A stretch of 43,319 nucleotides of DNA from Eubacteriales bacterium. Its GTDB lineage: Bacteria > Bacillota > Clostridia > Oscillospirales > SIG627. The position numbers and the translations under genes were made by a program. The notes below the pieces were generated by a model. It worked only from the letters and a program-made list of their open reading frames with translations. It did not search any database and was not told the origin of the DNA. The stretch lies in NCBI GenBank assembly GCA_045657125.1, contig JAZOSM010000002.1, positions 1 through 43,319 of the forward strand, written 5' to 3'. This document shows, piece by piece, positions 1-17,189 of the stretch; the first letter of the stretch is position 1; each line of letters begins with the position of its first letter.

Positions 1-13
1 TCGTTCTTTTTTT

Positions 14-198
14 ATCCAAGCCGACAGGCTTGGTATATCATCAGCCTGTAGGGCTGTATATCATTACCGCACCTGTGCGGCGTATATCATCACGCGTAGC
101 GTGTATTTTTCTCGGCTTGATGATATAGAACTTCTTTCGAAGTTGATGATATGCAATTCCTTCGGAATTGACGATATACAACGGCAAGACGTTGATTT
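14..198. repeat. Hairpin-ladder element, copy A (3 forward TATATCAT linkers, 3 reverse ATGATATA-type linkers, 7 variable hairpins)
   Basis: Hairpins at 16-33, 42-56, 65-82, 91-103, 128-145, 154-170, 179-194. Linkers TATATCAT at 34, 57, 83 and ATGATATA/ATGATATG/ACGATATA at 120, 146, 171. Same architecture at 1067-1274 and 11443-11627. Confidence 0.9.
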
Positions 199-228
199 AT
201 AAAATTCAACCTCAGGTTGAAAAATATA

Positions 229-257
229 TTGAAAAATATTGGAAGATGTGATATAAT
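229..257 (+). promoter_or_regulatory. sigmaA-type promoter for histidine phosphatase gene
   Basis: TTGAAA(229-234)-17 bp-TATAAT(252-257) with extended -10 TG. Confidence 0.7.
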
Positions 258-301
258 GAGGCCACTAAATTGCGGAGCATACGGAAAAGGATATCAAGTA
301 T

Positions 302-991
302 ATGAAGATTTATTTTGTTCGCCACGGACACCCTGATTATGAAAACGATTGTTTGACAGAGCTGGGGCACAAGCAGGCCGTAGCCGCGGCAGAAAGATTA
401 AAGAATTGCGGAATCGAGCAAGTGTTTTCTTCTACCAAAGGAAGAGCTTTTCAAACCGCAGAGTATACTGCAAAAGCACTTGGTTTGCAGGTGATATCTT
501 GTGATTTTATGAGAGAAATAGGGTGGCGTTCAATTGACGGAGAGCCTATTTTGGCAAATGGACATCCATGGAGTCTTTCTGACATCTTTGCCTCCGAGGG
601 TAAAACTTTGACCGACAAAGAGTGGTACATGAAAGAGCCATATTGCAAAAGCAAGGTGGTAAGTTCTGCCGATGTCGTAAAAAAGGGGCTCGACGCGTGG
701 TTTGCCGAGCTCGGATATCAAAGAGAGGGAGAGTATTATCGAGTAGTTGGCGAAGCAACAGAAAAAACGGTTGCCATGTTCAGCCATGGTGGCTCTTCTT
801 CCGTAGCGTTGTCGCACATTTTGAACATCCCCTTTCCCCAAATTTGCGGCATTTTTCATCCTGATTTTACTTCAATTACTGTGGTTGAGTTTTCGGATAA
901 AATCGGAGAGCTTTTTTGCCCCGTACTGCTTCTTTTGAATGATGCACGGCATATAGAAGGTCTTGATAGCAAAAAAACATACGAAGAGTGA
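302..991 (+). CDS. Histidine phosphatase / phosphoglycerate mutase family protein
   Basis: N-terminal FVRHG motif, LTELGHKQA, SSTKGRAFQTA and C-terminal FSHGG; RBS AAAGGA upstream. Confidence 0.9.
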   Translation: MKIYFVRHGHPDYENDCLTELGHKQAVAAAERLKNCGIEQVFSSTKGRAFQTAEYTAKALGLQVISCDFMREIGWRSIDGEPILANGHPWSLSDIFASEGKTLTDKEWYMKEPYCKSKVVSSADVVKKGLDAWFAELGYQREGEYYRVVGEATEKTVAMFSHGGSSSVALSHILNIPFPQICGIFHPDFTSITVVEFSDKIGELFCPVLLLLNDARHIEGLDSKKTYEE

Positions 992-1031
992 GTCCTAAAA
1001 GGAAGTGGCATCTTTTTTGTCAACACGCGCC

Positions 1032-1066
1032 AAAAAAGAGATACTCAATTGAGTATCTCTTTTTTT
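1032..1066. terminator. Intrinsic (bidirectional) terminator directly upstream of element copy B
   Basis: Palindrome AAAAAAGAGATACTCAATTGAGTATCTCTTTTTT. Confidence 0.8.
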
Positions 1067-1274
1067 ATCCAATCCGAAGGATTGGTATGTAATCGCCGTT
1101 AGGCGTATGTAATCAGTTCGCTCTGCGAACTGTATGTCATCAAAGCATTAGCTTTGTATGTTTTTTCCTTCGGATTGATTACATACCGACTTTGTCGGAT
1201 TACATCCACGGCGTTGCCGTGATTACATACATTTTGTTACGAAAATGATTACATGCAACACTTCGTGTTGATTT
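1067..1274. repeat. Hairpin-ladder element, copy B (linker variant TATGTAAT / ATTACATA)
   Basis: Hairpins at 1069-1085, 1094-1105, 1114-1132, 1141-1156, central TCC-TTC-GGA, 1186-1198, 1207-1221, 1230-1247, 1256-1270. Linkers TATGTAAT/TATGTCAT at 1086, 1106, 1133 and ATTACAT(A/C/G) at 1178, 1199, 1222, 1248. Confidence 0.9.
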
Positions 1275-1296
1275 AGTGGCGGATTTCTGCTATACT
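1268..1296 (+). promoter_or_regulatory. sigmaA-type promoter whose -35 is the right end of element B
   Basis: TTGATT(1268-1273)-17 bp-TATACT(1291-1296) with extended -10 TG; RBS GAGGTG then ATG at 1316. Confidence 0.6.
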
Positions 1297-1315
1297 CTAA
1301 TTAAGAGGTGAGAGT

Positions 1316-1558
1316 ATGAAAGAAAATCTTTTGCTTAAATATGCCGAACAGTTGGCATTTCAAATTGAAATTTTATGCAAATCTTTAGAACGCAAAGACA
1401 ATTCTAATGTGATTTTTCAAATTCGTAAATCTTCTTCGAGTGTCTTTGCAAATATTACTGAAGCTCAATATCCTCAAAGTTTATCCGATATGCTTTCTAA
1501 ATTCAAAATTGCTCGTAAAGAGTGTGTTGAAACAGAAAGTTGGTTAAAACTTTTATAG
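1316..1558 (+). pseudogene. Four-helix-bundle protein (23S rRNA IVP / TIGR02436 / Avd-like family), C-terminally truncated
   Basis: QIRKSSSSVFANITEA...DMLSKFKIARKECVETESWLKLL matches the family consensus (QLxRSxxSxxANIxE...FxxKLxIAxKExxETxYWLxLL). Stops at 80 aa, lacking the last helix expected in ~110-120 aa members. Confidence 0.8.
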
Positions 1559-1580
1559 TTCATCCTTTATGTGGGAATAC

Positions 1581-1614
1581 AAAAGAGAACACTTCGTATG
1601 AAGTGTTCTTTTTT
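1581..1614. terminator. Intrinsic terminator after four-helix-bundle gene
   Basis: AGAACACTTC-GTAT-GAAGTGTTCT followed by T-tract. Confidence 0.75.
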
Positions 1615-1673
1615 GTCCAAATATGCAGACTGTATCTGTAAAGTTGATATAAAAAAAGCCGAGTTTTTTTCGG

Positions 1674-1703
1674 TTGCACTTTTTTAGAAAAATATGTTAT
1701 AAT
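1674..1703 (+). promoter_or_regulatory. Putative sigmaA promoter for anti-sigma operon
   Basis: TTGCAC(1674-1679)-18 bp-TATAAT(1698-1703) with extended -10 TG. Confidence 0.5.
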
Positions 1704-1805
1704 AGAAAAAAGGTTATTCGATCTTCTTTTCTTTGGAGTCTTGCAGGGGATGAAATTGTCGGTTCATCACGCAAAAAGATTCAGGAAAGATTGGAGGGAA
1801 AAATA

Positions 1806-2357
1806 ATGAAGGCTGAATGCAGTGTAATTTGTGATTTGCTTCCACTTTATGCGACGGATCGGGTAAGTCCCGAAACCGCAGAGTTTGTAAAAGCTCATTT
1901 GGAGGATTGTGCCGCGTGTCGGGCAGAGCTTGCGTGCTTGGGATCAGGAAAAAAATTATCCGAGATTGAGAAAAATCCTAACGAAATGGCGAGTGAGTCA
2001 AAGCCTTTTAAAAATTTCTTTAAAAGATTCAAGACACAGTTTCGCTATTTTGCGTATGCCGCTTTGATCTTTTTGATTTTTCTCGGCTTTAGTGCGACTT
2101 GCGGAGAAGACTTAATGTATAATACCTTGATTATGCCTGCCGTAGGTGTGATCGGTTACTACGTTTTCCGTGAAAAATCGATTTTTAAGGTTCCGCTTCT
2201 CCTTTTGACCATTGATACTCTTTTGTGGTTGCTGGATTACGTTGATCTTGATTTTTATTCCGTATTGTTATGGACGGTGATTTACACCTTTTTTATTGGC
2301 ATTGGAATTGCCATTGGATTTTTCCTGCATTTTGCATTCAGAAAGGAGAATGGCTGA
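1806..2357 (+). CDS. zf-HC2 zinc-finger anti-sigma-like membrane protein
   Basis: MKAECSVICDLLPLY...HLEDCAAC (HxxxCxxC) then about 4 hydrophobic segments. Start moved to ATG 1806 after RBS GGAGGG. Confidence 0.85.
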   Translation: MKAECSVICDLLPLYATDRVSPETAEFVKAHLEDCAACRAELACLGSGKKLSEIEKNPNEMASESKPFKNFFKRFKTQFRYFAYAALIFLIFLGFSATCGEDLMYNTLIMPAVGVIGYYVFREKSIFKVPLLLLTIDTLLWLLDYVDLDFYSVLLWTVIYTFFIGIGIAIGFFLHFAFRKENG

Positions 2358-3190
2358 TGAGAAATCGAATTTTGAAAATTTTCTCCTTTGTTTTTGCTCT
2401 GATTTTGATTGCAGGCGTACTTTTTATTTCAAATGCTTTTGCCGGGAATCCGATTTCAAAAGCACTTGCCACCAACGCCGCCCAAAAGCATCTTGAAAAA
2501 AATTATTCCGATCAGAATTTTTTGTTGGAAGACGTTTCCTATAACTTTAAGGATGGATATTATCACGGATTTGTTTATGATCCCAACAGCATGGATCGTG
2601 ATTTTAGCATTCTTATTGATATATGGGGTAAGGTGAGATACGATACCTATGAGGATCGTGTGCTTTCGGGCAGAAATACTGCCGATCGAATCAGTATGGA
2701 TTACAGAGCCGCTGTGGATACGGTTTTGGAAAGCAGAGTGTTTCCCTACAGCACAAACATCGGATACGGCGATTTCGAAATGTATCCCCGTGACCTTTCA
2801 GAAGATGAAACTGTTCCCGCGTATGCGCTGATTACCGATGATTTGATCATTGATTCTTTTTACGATGTGAATGAACTCGGTGCAAAGCACGGGAAACTTA
2901 CGATTTATATTGACAGCAAAACGGTTTCTTATGAGGAATTGTCCAAAATTCTCCTTGAAATCAAAAAAATGTTTGACGATGCGGGTGTAAAATTTTACGT
3001 AATTGATTGTGTGCTTGAATATCAGCCGGATCAGGATGGAAAGCGCAAAGAAGCCCGTGTCGAAGTGCGCGAATTTTTATATGCAGATATTTACGAGGAT
3101 GAAATGGTGCAGCGCGTAAAGGTTTCTGATGAAGCGGCACGTGCTTATTACAAAGAGCAAGATGCGGAGAAATCGGAAGAAATTCTATAA
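2357..3190 (+). CDS. Membrane-anchored YfjL-like protein
   Basis: TGA/ATG overlap with upstream gene and RBS AAGGAG; N-terminal TM helix followed by GNPISK...HLEKNY...YNFKDGYY. Confidence 0.6.
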   Translation: MRNRILKIFSFVFALILIAGVLFISNAFAGNPISKALATNAAQKHLEKNYSDQNFLLEDVSYNFKDGYYHGFVYDPNSMDRDFSILIDIWGKVRYDTYEDRVLSGRNTADRISMDYRAAVDTVLESRVFPYSTNIGYGDFEMYPRDLSEDETVPAYALITDDLIIDSFYDVNELGAKHGKLTIYIDSKTVSYEELSKILLEIKKMFDDAGVKFYVIDCVLEYQPDQDGKRKEARVEVREFLYADIYEDEMVQRVKVSDEAARAYYKEQDAEKSEEIL

Positions 3191-3240
3191 TCTATGCGCT
3201 TTTTATGCACCGGACTGCCTGTGGAAAAAGGAGAACTGAA

Positions 3241-4110
3241 ATGTATCAGGATATGTTTGGGGAAACGCGCTATAAAATCGGTCTGCATATTCATACGAAT
3301 TTGTCAGATGGACGCGTATCTCCCGAAGAATGTGGAAGAATCTATAAAGAGGCAGGATTTGACGCCATTGCCATTACGGACCATTGGAAATACGGCGCAG
3401 AGGGGGAGCTTTCCGGCTTGAAAATTTTTTCAGGCTGTGAGTATCACGTAGGCAATGCGGATACCGTGGAAGGCGTGATGCATATCGTCGGTGTCGGTAT
3501 GGACTCGGAGCCTGCGAATCTTACCCGTGAAAGTACCCGTCAAGAGATTATTGACGGAATCAGAAGCAGTGGCGGTATTGCAATATTTGCCCATCCTGCG
3601 TGGTCATTGAATGCCCCCGATCACGCCAAGGCTTTATCTGGCTTTGGCGCCTTGGAAATTTATAATACGGTTTCCGAATGCGGACAAAGCAACCGTCCGT
3701 ATTCCGGTTACCTTGTGGATCTTCTTGCAAACGAGGGGATTACATACCCGCTGATTGCAACGGACGATACCCATTATTACGCGGGAAGTGATGAAACAAA
3801 GGCTTATATTATGGTAAAAGCAAAAAGCCTTGATCAAAAATCTATTCTCGAAGCTATTGCAAATTGTGATTTTTACGCAACTCAGGGACCCGAACTTCAC
3901 GTCACCCGCCGTGGGGATAAAATTATTGTGCATTGCAGCGAATGCGAGACACTTGCTTTTATGAGCAACCGTGTCTGGGCACCCGATCGAATGAAGCGCG
4001 GTGCAGTAACTTATGCCGAATATCAGCTTACGGACGTTGAAAAATGGATTCGTGTGGAAGTAAAAGATAAAAACGGGCTTTATGCTTGGAGCAATATCAT
4101 CGTTCTTTGA
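3241..4110 (+). CDS. PHP-domain metallohydrolase (CehA/McbA-like)
   Basis: LHIHTNLSDG, AITDH, GCEY, AHP, ATDDTH motifs; RBS AAGGAG. Confidence 0.85.
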   Translation: MYQDMFGETRYKIGLHIHTNLSDGRVSPEECGRIYKEAGFDAIAITDHWKYGAEGELSGLKIFSGCEYHVGNADTVEGVMHIVGVGMDSEPANLTRESTRQEIIDGIRSSGGIAIFAHPAWSLNAPDHAKALSGFGALEIYNTVSECGQSNRPYSGYLVDLLANEGITYPLIATDDTHYYAGSDETKAYIMVKAKSLDQKSILEAIANCDFYATQGPELHVTRRGDKIIVHCSECETLAFMSNRVWAPDRMKRGAVTYAEYQLTDVEKWIRVEVKDKNGLYAWSNIIVL

Positions 4111-4148
4111 ACGGAATGATATAAAGCGAAAATATAACGGAGTAAAAT

Positions 4149-5060
4149 ATGAACGAAAAGATTTCAAATTTGGCGCAGATGGCAAGCTTGCGTCGCTACA
4201 CCATCGCCGAGGGCAGGGAAAAAGGTCTTGAGGTAATTGATTGTGATAACGGAACCATTCGCTTCCTGTTAAACGTGACCAAAGCTTGTGATATGATGCA
4301 GCTTTACCACAAAGGGCAGAATATGACCTTTGTATCCAAAAACGGATTTATAAAAAGAGAACTTCCTTTTGTAAATCGTTTCGAGGGCGGTATGCTCTAC
4401 ACCTGTGGTCTTGACAGTTGCGGAGAACGGGAGGGATTTGAGGAGCACGGTTCTTTTCATAATACCCCCGCGGAGATCTTGCGTGCAGAATGCAGTGAAG
4501 AAGGAATTGTAGTGGAGGCCTTGGTTCGAGATACCGCTATGGGCGGCAAGAACCTTGTCCTGCACCGTAGAATTACTACCGATCTCGGGGCATCGCAGGT
4601 TTCCGTAGTGGATCGTTTGACCAACCATGGCTTTTTTGATGAAAAATATTGCCTGTTGTATCACGTGAACTTAGGATACCCCTTGGTGGATGCTGATGCG
4701 AAAATCGTATGTGACTCCGCTGAGTGTATGCCTCGTACAGCGTGGGCAGAAAAGAATTTGGATTCGGCGTACCAAATCAGTGAACCTGCCCCGGGTTTTG
4801 AGGAAACCTGTTATTATTTGATGCCCAAAACCCCGAAAGTATCTTTGGTCAATGAAAAAATCGGGAAAAAGTTTACCGTCTCGTATTCCGCCGATACCTT
4901 GCCGCAGTTTCTGGAGTGGAAGAATATGACCAGCGGTGATTATGCCGTAGGGCTCGAGCCTGCTACCACAAAGCTGGATCATTTATTTGAACTGAGCACG
5001 ATCGGACACGGAGAGACTATCGAGTTTCGCGTGGTTCTGAACATCTGTGAAATTGAATGA
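4149..5060 (+). CDS. Aldose 1-epimerase-like protein (DUF4432 family)
   Basis: FEGGMLYTCGL, EHGSFHNTPA, LYHVNLGYP and GLEPAT motifs. Confidence 0.8.
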   Translation: MNEKISNLAQMASLRRYTIAEGREKGLEVIDCDNGTIRFLLNVTKACDMMQLYHKGQNMTFVSKNGFIKRELPFVNRFEGGMLYTCGLDSCGEREGFEEHGSFHNTPAEILRAECSEEGIVVEALVRDTAMGGKNLVLHRRITTDLGASQVSVVDRLTNHGFFDEKYCLLYHVNLGYPLVDADAKIVCDSAECMPRTAWAEKNLDSAYQISEPAPGFEETCYYLMPKTPKVSLVNEKIGKKFTVSYSADTLPQFLEWKNMTSGDYAVGLEPATTKLDHLFELSTIGHGETIEFRVVLNICEIE

Positions 5061-11330: not shown

Positions 11331-11406
11331 AGGGATGTAGCCAAGCGGTTAAGGCACCAGACTTTGACTCTGGCACTCGTGAGTTCAAATCTCGCCATCC
11401 CTGCCA
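11331..11406 (+). tRNA. tRNA-Gln (anticodon TTG)
   Basis: Acceptor AGGGATG/CATCCCT, D-arm GCC..GGC, anticodon arm CCAGA-CTTTGAC-TCTGG, T-loop TTCAAAT, encoded CCA; 76 nt. Confidence 0.97.
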
Positions 11407-11442
11407 AAAAATTCGACAAGTTTCAACTTGTCGAATTTTTTT
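11407..11442 (+). terminator. tRNA terminator directly upstream of element copy C
   Basis: AAAAATTCGACAAGTT-TC-AACTTGTCGAATTTTT. Confidence 0.85.
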
Positions 11443-11627
11443 ATCCAAGCCGCAGGCTTGGCATATCATCACGACGCAGTCGTGTATATCATCAAGGGCG
11501 CATTGCGCCCTGGTATCTCATCACGCGCCAGCGTGCATTTCCTGCGGAATTGATGATATACAATGCTTCGCATTGATGATATACCGCAACAAGTTGCGGA
11601 TGATATACACGGCTTTCGCCGTGATTT
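11443..11627. repeat. Hairpin-ladder element, copy C
   Basis: Hairpins at 11445-11461, 11470-11484, 11493-11513, 11522-11535, central TTCC-TGC-GGAA, 11561-11575, 11584-11599, 11608-11623. Linkers CATATCAT/TATATCAT/TATCTCAT then ATGATATA x3. Confidence 0.9.
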
Positions 11628-11779
11628 ATGCAAGAGTTCGAATTCATACGCAAAACTGCTGAAAATATCTTTTTTGATTGATGTGTTCCCTTCGGGAATA
11701 TGATGCCGCTACGCGAATGATGTCACGTTGGATGACGATTCTATTCCGTTTTTTGTGCAGATTGACTGCTTGTTTTTTG

Positions 11780-14900: not shown

Positions 14901-17189
14901 TACGGCGGTACCTTCTACGGCAGCATAAGTCCCACCAACGAAGCCCCCGTTGAAGCTAATATGCTTGGTACGGCACGCGTTACCGTTGAACCGAAGCACA
15001 GCGACGTGATGATCGGCGGCAAGGTCGTATCTCGCTTTGCGGCAGAAAAGATTTCCGTTGTGGGCGGTGAATATAAGATTCTCGTAAACAGAGACGGCTC
15101 TTTGCAGGCCAATGAATCTGCAGAAGGCACCATTGAAGTGGTGCAGACCGATATGTGGAAAAAGTCTACGTATCTTGCACTTCCTGCAGGTCACACCGCT
15201 ACCGTAAACGCTTCTACTGCAAAAGGCGCTTACGGCTACTTTAAGACAAAGCTCGGTCAGCAGGGCGAGATCATTGAGGTATACGGAGATGCTTTGGACC
15301 TTGGTGCTTCCCTGGTCCTGACCGACCGCATTGCGGTAAAGTTTCAACTGAATAAGGAACTTGTTGATGCAGTTGAAAACTTTACTTATTCCTTTACCTT
15401 GCCTGACGGAACCGTTTTGGCAGAGGGTGATGCAGACGATCTGAAAGATATGATCGAAATGACGGAGTTTGAGTATTATACTCTGACCTTGAAAGCCCTC
15501 GGCATTTCTCAGTTTGATACGCCGATCACGGCGAATATCAAGGGAATCTGGGAGGGTGATACCTTCTCCATTTCCGCCTTGGCTTATGCTGCGGTTGATG
15601 CTTGGGAAGGAAATGATAACTTCGTTTTGATGGCGAAGTCTATTGTAAATATGGCTGCAGCGGCGAAAGACGATACGCTTCCTTACCGGTTGACTCCCGA
15701 TGCCGTTGAATACCAGCGCAAGACTCCTACCAAGGATAACGATGCTCTGATCTCCTTTACCTCCAAGAGTCTTTTGATGAGCAGTGCCGTAGGCGTTCGC
15801 CTTGAGGGTACTGTAGCAAATGCTTCCGATGCGGAAGGTATGATTGTCAAAGTAAACGGAAACAACGTAACGAACAGAGCGCTGATTCAGGTGGAAGGAA
15901 ATTCCGTTTTCGTAGATCTGTTCTTTACCGCTTATGGTATGAGCAAGGAATTCAGCCTTGAAATTCTTGATAAGAACGGAAAGAATTGCTTGACGATGTT
16001 TGAGCGATTGGATTCCTTTGCGGCTTTGTATGGCGCAGACCACAAGCTTGCGGTTTCCCTTTTGTCTTACATTCAGGCAACCGCTGCTATGGAAAAGGCA
16101 ACCTTTAATATGGAAGCGACCGATTCCGAGATCGCACATCTTAACAGCCTTTATGAAGGTGAGACTGTTTACTACGGAGATATCCACGGACATCCCGGCG
16201 GCGGAATCATCGAGGATGGTAAAGTAGATATGTCCGTTTGGGTAGCAGACAGAACTACCATCGGCGTTGACTTCTACACGGCTATGAACCATAAGCAGGT
16301 CGCACATATGTACGACGACGGATGGGACGATACCGTTATGATCGGCGGTTCCGAGCCTGCTACTTCCATTACCAAGAACGGAAAGAAAATTTCCGTACAC
16401 TACAATATGATCGTTCCCAATCCCGAAGCGCTGATTGAGGTTCTTCAGCTTTTCCCCGAGTTTAAATATACCGGCGGAACGGGTGATATTGAACTGAATA
16501 TGGGCACCTTCGGTTATCCCGGATTTACCTACGATCGCTTCAACGAGCTTGTTTCTGCCATTAAAGAGCGCGGCGGAACCGTGGTGAACGTGCATCCCAA
16601 GCAGCAGTACACATCCGACGATCCCTTGGACTACTACTATCAGGATTATATGGGTCTTGAGGTGTTCTACTCCTACACCGACAAGAACATCCACGGCAAA
16701 GATTCCCAGGATAACTACAAGCTCTGGACGGATCTTCTGGCTCTCGGAAAGAGAGTTTGGGCAACTGCAGGTTCCGATAGTCATAATTCGCCCACCAACA
16801 GCGGTCTTACTACCCTTTACGCTTCTCAGCGACTCAATACCAAGTACGTAGAACAGTTGGTTAGCGGTAATTTTGCTCCCGGATACGCAGGCATTCGTAT
16901 GGCAATCGGTGATGCGGAAATGGGTGGACATACCGATTTCGAAGGTAAGAGGCTGATCTTTTCCGTTGGTGATATCCACGATCTGTATCTGTCTAAGACC
17001 CGCGCATACAGAGTCAACGTAATCACCGATCAGGGCGTTGTATTCTCCACCGTAATCGATGGTACCAAGACGAGTTACTTCTCTCTGGACGCTGATGAAA
17101 ATGCGGCATTTTACCGCATTGAGGTCATTGATGAGTCGATTCAGGGTCTGCCCATCGTAGGTCTCGGTAACCCCATCTGGAACGACTGA
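11904..17189 (+). CDS. Large secreted protein: signal peptide, tandem 'NxISGGTF' beta-solenoid repeats, C-terminal PHP-type metallohydrolase domain
   Basis: RBS AGGAGG; signal peptide ending TSA-A; many (I/V)SGGTF..FYGG repeats; C-terminal YGDIHGH, DFYTAMNH, VHP, GLEV, AGSDSH. Confidence 0.85.
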   Translation: MKNAKLFSVLASLVLLVACVVGVLVFGTSAADETVQWTIDGTTYSTIKEALTAAEGKNWAASQTLVITVDPTKLANESISHDANGTAYAGGIAFGQKTIFRADGTRLPITIKGSSDRAAFTLNITTDTKVACANNYTFENLTFPIGATSKNTYFFAGSGVIRLENVATGTGVLGKMSGDNFTARAFDGWTADHVAANAYKGSTNTYTSPKVLTSLTIGNDVVYVHDATKCNTAAVQDYDGWDTYAGVTLTPSDIVAEIVLDGGRVGDFAGRVGTSPVAESIQRVEKGAIAGAYFASSGNFVNATAYSGRTHYTGNITIIVNGGTIEKSTRLLHTAQVNGNYKVYFNGGTFKSYVQVGYGENVITGDYELNVTGGLYEDTANGFYAHPSARIEGKCVVNISGGTFKHWFRGTHLQPFDEDGAPTTFKSIEINVMPNAKSPELDPVFEGNFYGNYKNGGTIETMKINISGGTFNSFVTNTHSDGVGTIVNTVTGGTFNGAFYPGKVTYAGVIGSITNKVSGGTFNAGFFGNGQYGDASPCPTVLNEISGGTFNGYFYGGGEMEKCYAETITNKVSGGTFNSYFYGGSKVSNYASTDVINEISGGTFVKAFLGGNVSGTVNSVTNRISGGTFSSNFYGGSDGGTIKVVATEVTDGTFGGIYFGGNYSSVTTDITNTFKGGTFNNLVMGAGKASTTGNVSNTISGGNFKSLFMGAGVLSAVDGNVTNNISGGTFAKPVFGGACNAAITGTITNNLCGPVTFTQGFCAVHGTKANGGSTGSIVNRIYADANGKAPKILNPPANEAAGSVFTYESTKYDVSDTNGFSFLGGTCYGTITGTITNTVEAGEFGTASIGMFHAGSRNSAIGKDANGVSVNNLIKGGTFHFRFYGGCLNGTASGETRTVVEGGVFEKEFTAGNRTMSSYNKPITLIIRDGEFLSKVYGTYFGYTADQSARGQISSNVMVNIEGGIFRNDIYGMGNNGAATATYSNGSGITSDGSVLVNIYGGTFYGSISPTNEAPVEANMLGTARVTVEPKHSDVMIGGKVVSRFAAEKISVVGGEYKILVNRDGSLQANESAEGTIEVVQTDMWKKSTYLALPAGHTATVNASTAKGAYGYFKTKLGQQGEIIEVYGDALDLGASLVLTDRIAVKFQLNKELVDAVENFTYSFTLPDGTVLAEGDADDLKDMIEMTEFEYYTLTLKALGISQFDTPITANIKGIWEGDTFSISALAYAAVDAWEGNDNFVLMAKSIVNMAAAAKDDTLPYRLTPDAVEYQRKTPTKDNDALISFTSKSLLMSSAVGVRLEGTVANASDAEGMIVKVNGNNVTNRALIQVEGNSVFVDLFFTAYGMSKEFSLEILDKNGKNCLTMFERLDSFAALYGADHKLAVSLLSYIQATAAMEKATFNMEATDSEIAHLNSLYEGETVYYGDIHGHPGGGIIEDGKVDMSVWVADRTTIGVDFYTAMNHKQVAHMYDDGWDDTVMIGGSEPATSITKNGKKISVHYNMIVPNPEALIEVLQLFPEFKYTGGTGDIELNMGTFGYPGFTYDRFNELVSAIKERGGTVVNVHPKQQYTSDDPLDYYYQDYMGLEVFYSYTDKNIHGKDSQDNYKLWTDLLALGKRVWATAGSDSHNSPTNSGLTTLYASQRLNTKYVEQLVSGNFAPGYAGIRMAIGDAEMGGHTDFEGKRLIFSVGDIHDLYLSKTRAYRVNVITDQGVVFSTVIDGTKTSYFSLDADENAAFYRIEVIDESIQGLPIVGLGNPIWND

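Follow-up and report, generated by a model that had tools for sequence, protein, structure and literature searches.

The DNA analysed here, called the window, is a stretch of 43,319 nucleotides from a bacterium of the order Oscillospirales (contig JAZOSM010000002.1); all features given below are on its plus strand unless a strand is named. Near the start of the window, a histidine-phosphatase gene (302–991) is followed by an IVP gene (1316–1558), whose product is a four helix bundle protein of the family PF05635/TIGR02436 that is 80 aa long and stops after helix 3. Between the two genes lies a 210-base run of small hairpins split by one repeated 8-letter word, which we refer to as copy B (1063–1275). 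The histidine-phosphatase gene has a Rho-independent two-way terminator (1032–1065) that consists of a 17-nt perfect inverted repeat with no spacer and with an A-run and a T-run at its sides; the T-run enters the element. At the other side, the 3′ end of the element is itself the −35 box (TTGATT) of a promoter (1268–1296) that continues with a 17-nt spacer, a TG and the −10 box TATACT.

Copy B starts with a conserved 5′ end (TTTTATCCAA, 1063–1072) that is identical in seven copies of the source genome; the exact sequence TTTATCCAA occurs four times in the window, three of them at element starts. The first hairpin, H0 (1069–1085), has a 7-bp stem and a GAA loop and folds as DNA with −4.9 kcal/mol, which was matched by none of 200 shuffles. 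The left arm (1086–1164) consists of three units of linker plus hairpin and then a degenerate linker. Its linkers are TATGTAAT (1086–1093 and 1106–1113), TATGTCAT (1133–1140) and the degenerate TATGTTTT (1157–1164), and its hairpins lie at 1094–1105, 1114–1132 and 1141–1156. Next comes a segment, M (1166–1177), that is the reverse complement of the 5′ arm and loop of H0 (1070–1081), with 100% complementarity over 12 nt. The right arm (1178–1270) contains four units with the mirrored linker, which reads ATTACATA at 1178–1185 and 1222–1229, ATTACATC at 1199–1206 and ATTACATG at 1248–1255; the hairpins lie at 1186–1198, 1207–1221, 1230–1247 and 1256–1270. The conserved 3′ end (TTGATTTA, 1268–1275) is common to copy B and to two further copies in the window, A and C.

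All eight hairpins of copy B fold as DNA, one of them weakly (−1.4 kcal/mol), and on either strand the folding of the region as a whole is far better than that of its shuffles (z −6.17 and −6.43). The word GATTACAT is found eight times in the window against 1.13 expected, a count that was reached in none of 100 shuffles. Six of these eight occurrences are within 1087–1254, where the left arm carries two on the minus strand and the right arm four on the plus strand. A sequence-only reading of this DNA had placed the element at 1067–1274, which is correct to within a few bases, and had described its layout accurately. Relative to copies A and C, the linker differs at left positions 4 and 6, and this change is mirrored at right positions 3 and 5. 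The hairpins are paired and all seven rung hairpins begin with C and end with G, the ends TTTTATCCAA and TTGATTTA are present in copies A and C as well, and copy B has the extra rung that had been reported, with four right-arm hairpins versus three in A and C.

Copies A (10–199) and C (11439–11628) have the same plan as copy B, with TATATCAT/ATGATATA linkers and three hairpins in the right arm, and both are solo. Copy A lies at the contig start and is followed by the histidine-phosphatase gene, and copy C comes after a tRNA-Gln gene (11331–11406) and its terminator. The word GATGATATA occurs seven times in the window, with 0.16 expected, and all seven are within these two copies. A degenerate array piece at 11676–11745 has linkers of another class, of the ATGATG type, between small hairpins. 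The 50 nt after copy C (11624–11676) are themselves a repeat on many contigs of relatives; in other genomes it precedes a short conserved stretch, after which come a new terminator and another array. Past the terminator of the IVP gene, the window contains at 1586–1660 the sequence TTTTTTGTCCAAAT, which resembles an array start and may be a remnant copy.

The arrays are abundant outside the window. Using a profile built from the copies, we found nine full copies, one partial copy and one one-rung miniature in the source genome (G000, 1.99 Mb, 77% complete), many of them near contig ends. BLAST of 41 related genomes detected the array in 26, with up to 28 matches per genome and in several families of the order; these genomes are related to each other and are mostly incomplete MAGs, and the counts are to be read as a pattern and not as independent trials. 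Where relatives are named, they are MAGs from animal guts, assigned to Clostridia, Acutalibacteraceae and Oscillospiraceae. The pooled retrieved DNA holds 156 non-redundant copies, and in two gut DNA runs the depth of element bins was about 50–150 times that of the flanks. All mapped copies are intergenic, and rung number varies between copies, as the sequence-only reading had it. Of the 66 arrays detected through DNA similarity, only 10 are followed within 520 nt by an IVP-like ORF; about 85% are solo. In one locus upstream of an IVP gene (L057), a hairpin module with its linker has been amplified head to tail, giving nine right-arm linkers. Another copy in the source genome (contig C126, 738–901) is not preceded by a terminator of the usual kind and begins a few codons past a ribosome-binding site and ATG; since the sequence after it looks like the rest of a zinc-ribbon protein, it may have inserted into a gene. 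Contig C111 of the same genome (approximately 2895–2983) has a perfect 22-nt palindrome around TTTCACGTGAAA, twice within 90 nt, which is unrelated to the arrays. Phage carriage was considered and rejected: the two-linker pattern is found on 46 viral contigs, only one of which has a true copy.

The arrays nearly always lie between the T-run of a terminator, often that of a tRNA gene, and a promoter, and point the same way as the genes on either side. The TTGATT of the element end is, in nearly all of the copies read, the −35 box, followed by a 17-nt spacer and TATAAT or TATACT. One terminator hairpin has an array next to it in all three of its copies in the source genome and in 22 of 22 in the loci, and because an array invariably comes after it, we conclude that this hairpin travels with the element. 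The orthologous tRNA-Gln gene of another genome (G011) has kept a similar terminator, has no array and has a different downstream neighbour; thus the array proper starts after the T-run. In places, arrays separate every pair of unrelated genes across several kb. One such piece (L027; G022 contig C7, 1–5000) has five unrelated single genes in a row with an array of one of two classes between each; the layout is cassette-like, and the piece 1–5000 contains no integrase.

The window genes between 200 and 3200 have no DNA-level orthologue in five close genomes, and searches of relatives with the window flanks gave no clean pair of filled and empty sites. The element ends, ATCCAAG... and ...CTTGAT, are loosely inverted, with no clean empty site to show target duplication. 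There is no transposase in or beside the copies; the IVP gene is the sole recurrent neighbour. In two RNA-library runs, contigs covered the histidine-phosphatase gene and otherwise only short stretches of copy A, and such coverage by metagenome contigs of a repeat shows neither transcription nor its absence.

The IVP after copy B matches its Pfam family with an E-value of 4.2e-14 and TIGR02436 with 2.3e-14. One TAG lies inside this match; relatives are full length, at 115–119 aa. The IVP gene at 16637–16867 of contig C37 in the source genome, which lies beside another copy, is interrupted at the identical point by an in-frame stop, following WLKL(L), and both proteins thereby lose helix 4. A full-length relative was modelled at pLDDT 95. 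The model resembles BT_0352 (2RLD; TM 0.83–0.91), and Xcc0516 (2GSC) also matches. It further resembles Avd, both alone and within the ribonucleoprotein of a diversity-generating retroelement (DGR; chains of 4DWL and 8UB7; TM 0.73–0.80), so the modelled IVP has an Avd-like fold. Avd is described as a positively charged pentamer (PMC6182149), and its stem-loop is gripped by all five protomers, with flipped-out bases between protomers (bioRxiv 10.1101/2023.10.23.563531). An assignment of PF05635 to the HEPN families was dropped, as the five terms searched are all absent from the HEPN survey (PMC3710099). Some other IVP genes (G000 contig C90 300–1100, L140, L153 and L154) have no hairpin-linker array upstream and are preceded by one long purine/pyrimidine-rich imperfect palindrome of short tandem words.

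The sequence-only reading had suggested that the arrays fall into subfamilies by linker sequence, in step with the clade of the protein encoded next to them. We took 80 loci of IVP relatives, from one genome per species; 75 of these had at least 150 nt upstream, and in 74 of the 75 loci, which are from other species, an array was directly upstream of the IVP gene. The split was exact. All 51 arrays of the TATATCAT class precede IVPs with an ending of the C[KNVR]TLK type, and all 23 arrays of the TATG[TG][AC]AT class are followed by IVPs of the C[IV]TIE type. The linkers TATGTAAT/ATTACATA are common to copy B and its closest IVP relatives (L018, L051–L060 and L220). Left and right linkers co-vary, as had also been claimed: the reverse complement of the linker 7-mer is present in 56 of 74 arrays, its plain reverse in three and its complement in none.

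The same rule extends to distant paralogues. Among the PF05635 genes of 16 related genomes, IVPs that are only about 35–50% identical are preceded by arrays of the same plan with private words, and each of at least eight IVP clades is marked by a mirrored linker of its own. These include AGTGATATT/AATATCACT (genomes G000, G004, G009 and G014), CGTGATG/CATCAC (G005 and G012), GTGAAGT/ACTTCAC (G013 and G026), ATGAAAT/ATTTCAT (G003, G023, G011 and G031), ATGATAT/ATATCAT (G022 and G009) and ATGAAGC/GCTTCAT (G013). A diverged member, AGTTATAT/ATATAACT, has a single change that is mirrored in both arms, and a given IVP clade keeps its word across different genera and families. For a comparison of class with protein identity, we used shared hexamers, as single best 7-mers were too strict about register; a usable hexamer set was obtained from 73 of 88 IVP-array pairs. 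A linker hexamer was shared by 984 of 1093 pairs of IVPs from different genomes that were at least 70% identical, the misses being arrays with only one hexamer past the filter, versus 83 of 1522 pairs below 70% identity. Presence of the array also followed presence of the family: 24 of the 41 genomes have both, two have an array only, two an IVP only, and 13 neither. Both genomes with an IVP only carry arrays of other classes, and one genome with 12 array matches and no PF05635 match (G018) is 63% complete. The control, the Y1 transposase (PF01797), was found in 14 of 26 genomes with arrays and 7 of 15 without. The link between class and clade points to a partnership of protein and repeat; with a gap of less than 100 bp between array and IVP gene, inheritance as a single unit could alone yield it.

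We next turn to the hairpins, which are maintained while their sequences differ, as the sequence-only reading had proposed. Of the unique segments between linkers, 144 of 159 in the left arm and 106 of 145 in the right arm fold from end to end, as compared with 55 of 1590 and 52 of 1450 shuffled segments, respectively. The accompanying idea that stem sequence is free did not hold, since the same hairpin modules recur at other rungs and in other linker classes. The hairpins are conserved, shuffled modules. Because they are shared across rungs and classes, the linkers have changed in concert while the hairpins remained unchanged, and selection by a reader of the linkers explains this concerted change more easily than drift.

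The hairpins also distinguish the strands. On the top strand of the left arm, the loop is of the c(GNA)g or c(GNNA)g type in 45 of 144 unique hairpins and of the complementary type in two, and G.T pairs outnumber A.C pairs by 31 to 3. For the right arm, the top strand has none of these loops versus 56 of the complementary type, and G.T exceeds A.C solely on the bottom strand (8 versus 4). C-G-closed GNA loops are unusually stable in DNA. In arrays whose arms are in the opposite order, the loop types swap along with linker orientation. This arm-wise flip indicates that both arms are objects of one kind, each on its own strand, a symmetry that belongs to duplex DNA and not to a transcript. Rather than being under selection, the asymmetry of the loops could go back to a small number of ancestral modules that always kept to one arm.

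The mirrored linker change had been taken as rung pairing within one folded strand. This part of the earlier claim was not supported: linker variants within an element are uncompensated at the partner position. In the table of copies, read by eye, the L3 C, R1 G and R2 terminal-G variants are independent of each other, and because such frequent variants occur independently, we dropped the one-strand ladder as the main reading. The complementarity between H0 and M, with at most one mismatch of 11, is present in 83 of 140 elements versus 17 of 700 mismatched controls, and it covaries over at least five H0 types. A simple DNA-binding model gives no account of it; it would fit a folding strand.

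Our model, which we hold with about even confidence, is that copy B is a member of a family of dispersed, dyad-symmetric intergenic arrays that are the cis partner of the IVP and act on DNA. Each arm displays the 8-nt linker word three to five times, each time beside a small stable hairpin with a C-G closing pair, and the two arms carry the word in opposite orientations, with the hairpins of each arm optimised for its own strand. Given this opposite orientation and these own-strand hairpins, the object that is read would be DNA rather than one folded RNA, in a form in which the hairpins are extruded or single-stranded and the linkers are duplex or flipped-out. The word is specific for the clade of the IVP gene just downstream, whose promoter takes its −35 box from the array end. 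By analogy with Avd on its stem-loop, IVP pentamers may bind linker-plus-hairpin units on the DNA, with the linker supplying the clade specificity. Such binding could serve the spread and maintenance of the arrays, control of the adjoining promoter, or both. Solo arrays would be non-autonomous derivatives, as in other selfish elements made of a protein and a repeat; the small fraction of arrays with an IVP gene (10 of 66) is as expected if most arrays are of this kind. We propose the group name IVP-cognate repeat array for inverted word sets with an adjoining PF05635 gene and a clade-specific word, all of which copy B has. The literature searched yielded no description of these arrays or of a general link between IVPs and repeats.

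We considered the possibility that the array is a REP/BIME- or MITE-like element moved by another enzyme, the linkers being that enzyme's binding sites and the IVP a frequent passenger that uses the carried promoter. We regard this as unlikely, even though the behaviour of the arrays has much of a mobile element: they are multi-copy, intergenic and often solo, assemblies break at them (copies lie near contig ends), one terminator hairpin travels along (3/3 in the source genome and 22/22 in the loci), modules are shuffled and amplified up to the nine right linkers of L057, the orthologous tRNA-Gln of G011 has a similar terminator and no array, and the window genes 200–3200 are without DNA-level orthologues in the five close genomes. 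However, the copies have no transposase inside or adjoining, the Y1 transposase does not track the arrays (14/26 versus 7/15), the six tyrosine recombinase genes (PF00589) of the source genome are on contigs without arrays, and a true copy is present in only 1 of 46 viral-contig pattern matches. Moreover, a passenger gene fails to explain a private linker that at least eight IVP clades have kept across genomes.

It is less probable still that the IVP is a regulator that binds duplex linkers as operators, controlling its own promoter and those behind solo arrays, while the hairpins do no more than absorb supercoils or stop read-through between co-directional genes. That nearly every copy read stops precisely at the −35 box, that the IVP gene is the first gene, often with varied genes directly after it, and that the last left-arm hairpin with the T-rich degenerate linker scores as a terminator-like site would all fit such control. 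Plain operators, however, need neither strand-specific G..A loops nor C-G-closed hairpins. In other phyla the repeats are on both sides of the IVP gene, which sits amid unrelated operons, an arrangement that looks more like an insertion than a regulon. The fold is also one without a known DNA-binding motif and has so far been known to grip RNA stem-loops (bioRxiv 10.1101/2023.10.23.563531).

The reading that survives worst, and that we think very improbable, is a structured noncoding RNA in which one strand forms a ladder of left-right linker pairs with the hairpins protruding as rungs: its strong fold (MFE −73.4 kcal/mol, z −6.17, with the ladder as predicted structure), the mirrored linker classes, the covariation of the 5′ part of H0 with M, loop bases included, and the excess of G.T over A.C in the left arm all suit it, but the element is placed between terminator and promoter, the minus strand folds equally well, loop type and G.T/A.C flip between arms as a single RNA would not need, linker variants are uncompensated at the partner position (by eye), the linkers of one arm are all alike, which pairing does not require, and positions 1–1400 have no Rfam match at the gathering score and nothing relevant at E ≤ 5. 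At the gathering score, tRNA was the only Rfam match in the whole window.

Several known systems share features with the proposed partnership of array and IVP. REP/BIME sequences are multi-copy extragenic hairpins in mosaic arrays, in which a conserved palindrome has a conserved tetranucleotide at its foot; the REP class is tied to the clade of a RAYT (Y1) transposase gene that is flanked by the repeats, and many copies are solo. The arrays are likewise extragenic and multi-copy, with units in both orientations, a class tied to a protein clade and many solo copies. In contrast to REPs, which do the reverse, the arrays conserve the 8-nt linker and vary in their stems, and their partner is a 115-aa four-helix bundle instead of a Y1 nuclease. 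RAYT/Y1 transposase as the array partner was rejected (PF01797 in 14/26 genomes with arrays and 7/15 without). For a MITE, a parent element with a transposase and the same ends was not found, the IVP gene again being the sole recurrent neighbour.

Integron attC sites are structured, single-strand-read sites whose architecture is conserved and whose sequence varies; they have core sites of the GTTRRRY type at their ends and an integron integrase nearby. The arrays resemble them in being structured and read on one strand, with conserved architecture and variable sequence, and in lying between unrelated co-oriented genes in variable regions. They differ in their ends, TTTTATCCAA and TTGATTTA, which are not attC core sites, in having no nearby integrase (the six PF00589 matches of the incomplete source genome are on array-free contigs) and in that each array unit has its own terminator and promoter. 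An integron-like cassette system was rejected, with no integrase near the arrays and attC core sites absent.

The intervening sequences (IVS) of 23S rRNA, which lie within a helix of that rRNA, encode the same S23p/IVP protein family (PF05635), of which the ORF at copy B is a truncated member. The Coxiella IVS has heptameric GACAGAT repeats in variable number before its S23p ORF, and terminal inverted repeats (PMC4990558). Both IVS and array thus have inverted and short tandem repeats beside an ORF, and both have long been suspected to be selfish. The array, however, is outside rRNA (there is no rRNA in the window), has both arms upstream of the ORF and promoter, whereas the inverted repeats of the IVS flank the ORF, has hairpins between the repeats and is mostly without an ORF.

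A further likeness is to DGRs. Their targets need a DNA hairpin or cruciform with free stem sequence and a GRNA loop (PMC3240598). The array hairpins match this with GC-rich stems whose sequence is free and with G..A loops read on a single strand; the modelled IVP fold adds the likeness to Avd. Unlike DGRs, the arrays have no template or variable repeats and have 6–10 units instead of a single hairpin, and no reverse transcriptase was found in the source genome (77% complete) or next to the IVP genes read. A DGR was rejected for the source genome, with 0 PF00078 matches at that completeness.

Genes for four-helix-bundle proteins also occur on plasmid records of Cyanobacteriota, Bacteroidota, Spirochaetota, Chloroflexota and Monoglobus, where they are between genes of unrelated operons. 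In seven of the eight plasmid records (L155–L162), a tandem word of 6–8 nt is upstream of the gene and its reverse complement is downstream; the Chlorohelix locus has 10 nt upstream only. The gene positions in these records are between hsdS and hsdR, between drmD and a gene for an MmeI-type enzyme, between helicase and methylase genes, and between two RND pump genes. These loci have in common with the arrays the protein family and, for each gene, its own word together with the reverse complement of that word. They differ in that the words follow one another head to tail, with no hairpins between them, and one arm stands on each side of the gene. The arrays of the Oscillospirales resemble a version of this theme in which both arms have moved upstream and hairpins separate the words. 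We found no paper on inverted tandem words beside four-helix-bundle genes on plasmid records in the literature searched.

These comparisons bear on a wider suggestion, which we offer tentatively as a possibility: PF05635/TIGR02436 proteins in general may bind their own short repeats, word and protein together forming a selfish or regulatory module, to which the Oscillospirales would have added DNA mini-hairpins and hundreds of solo arrays. If this is true, each IVP clade would have a private word of 6–9 nt in two inverted sets, across bacterial phyla, and the solo arrays of the Oscillospirales would supply host genes with terminators and promoters. In animal-gut Clostridia (Oscillospirales, Acutalibacteraceae), the arrays make up an abundant class of intergenic DNA; assemblies break at them, and they bring terminators and promoters with them. 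The natural matched pairs of protein and word, in at least eight classes, would be a ready specificity code. Hairpins with strand-specific G..A loops may connect the arrays to the still puzzling need of DGR targets for a hairpin or cruciform. For the very common S23p/IVP relatives of Avd, whose role has been open since the ORF of the 23S rRNA IVS, clade-specific repeat recognition would be a testable function.
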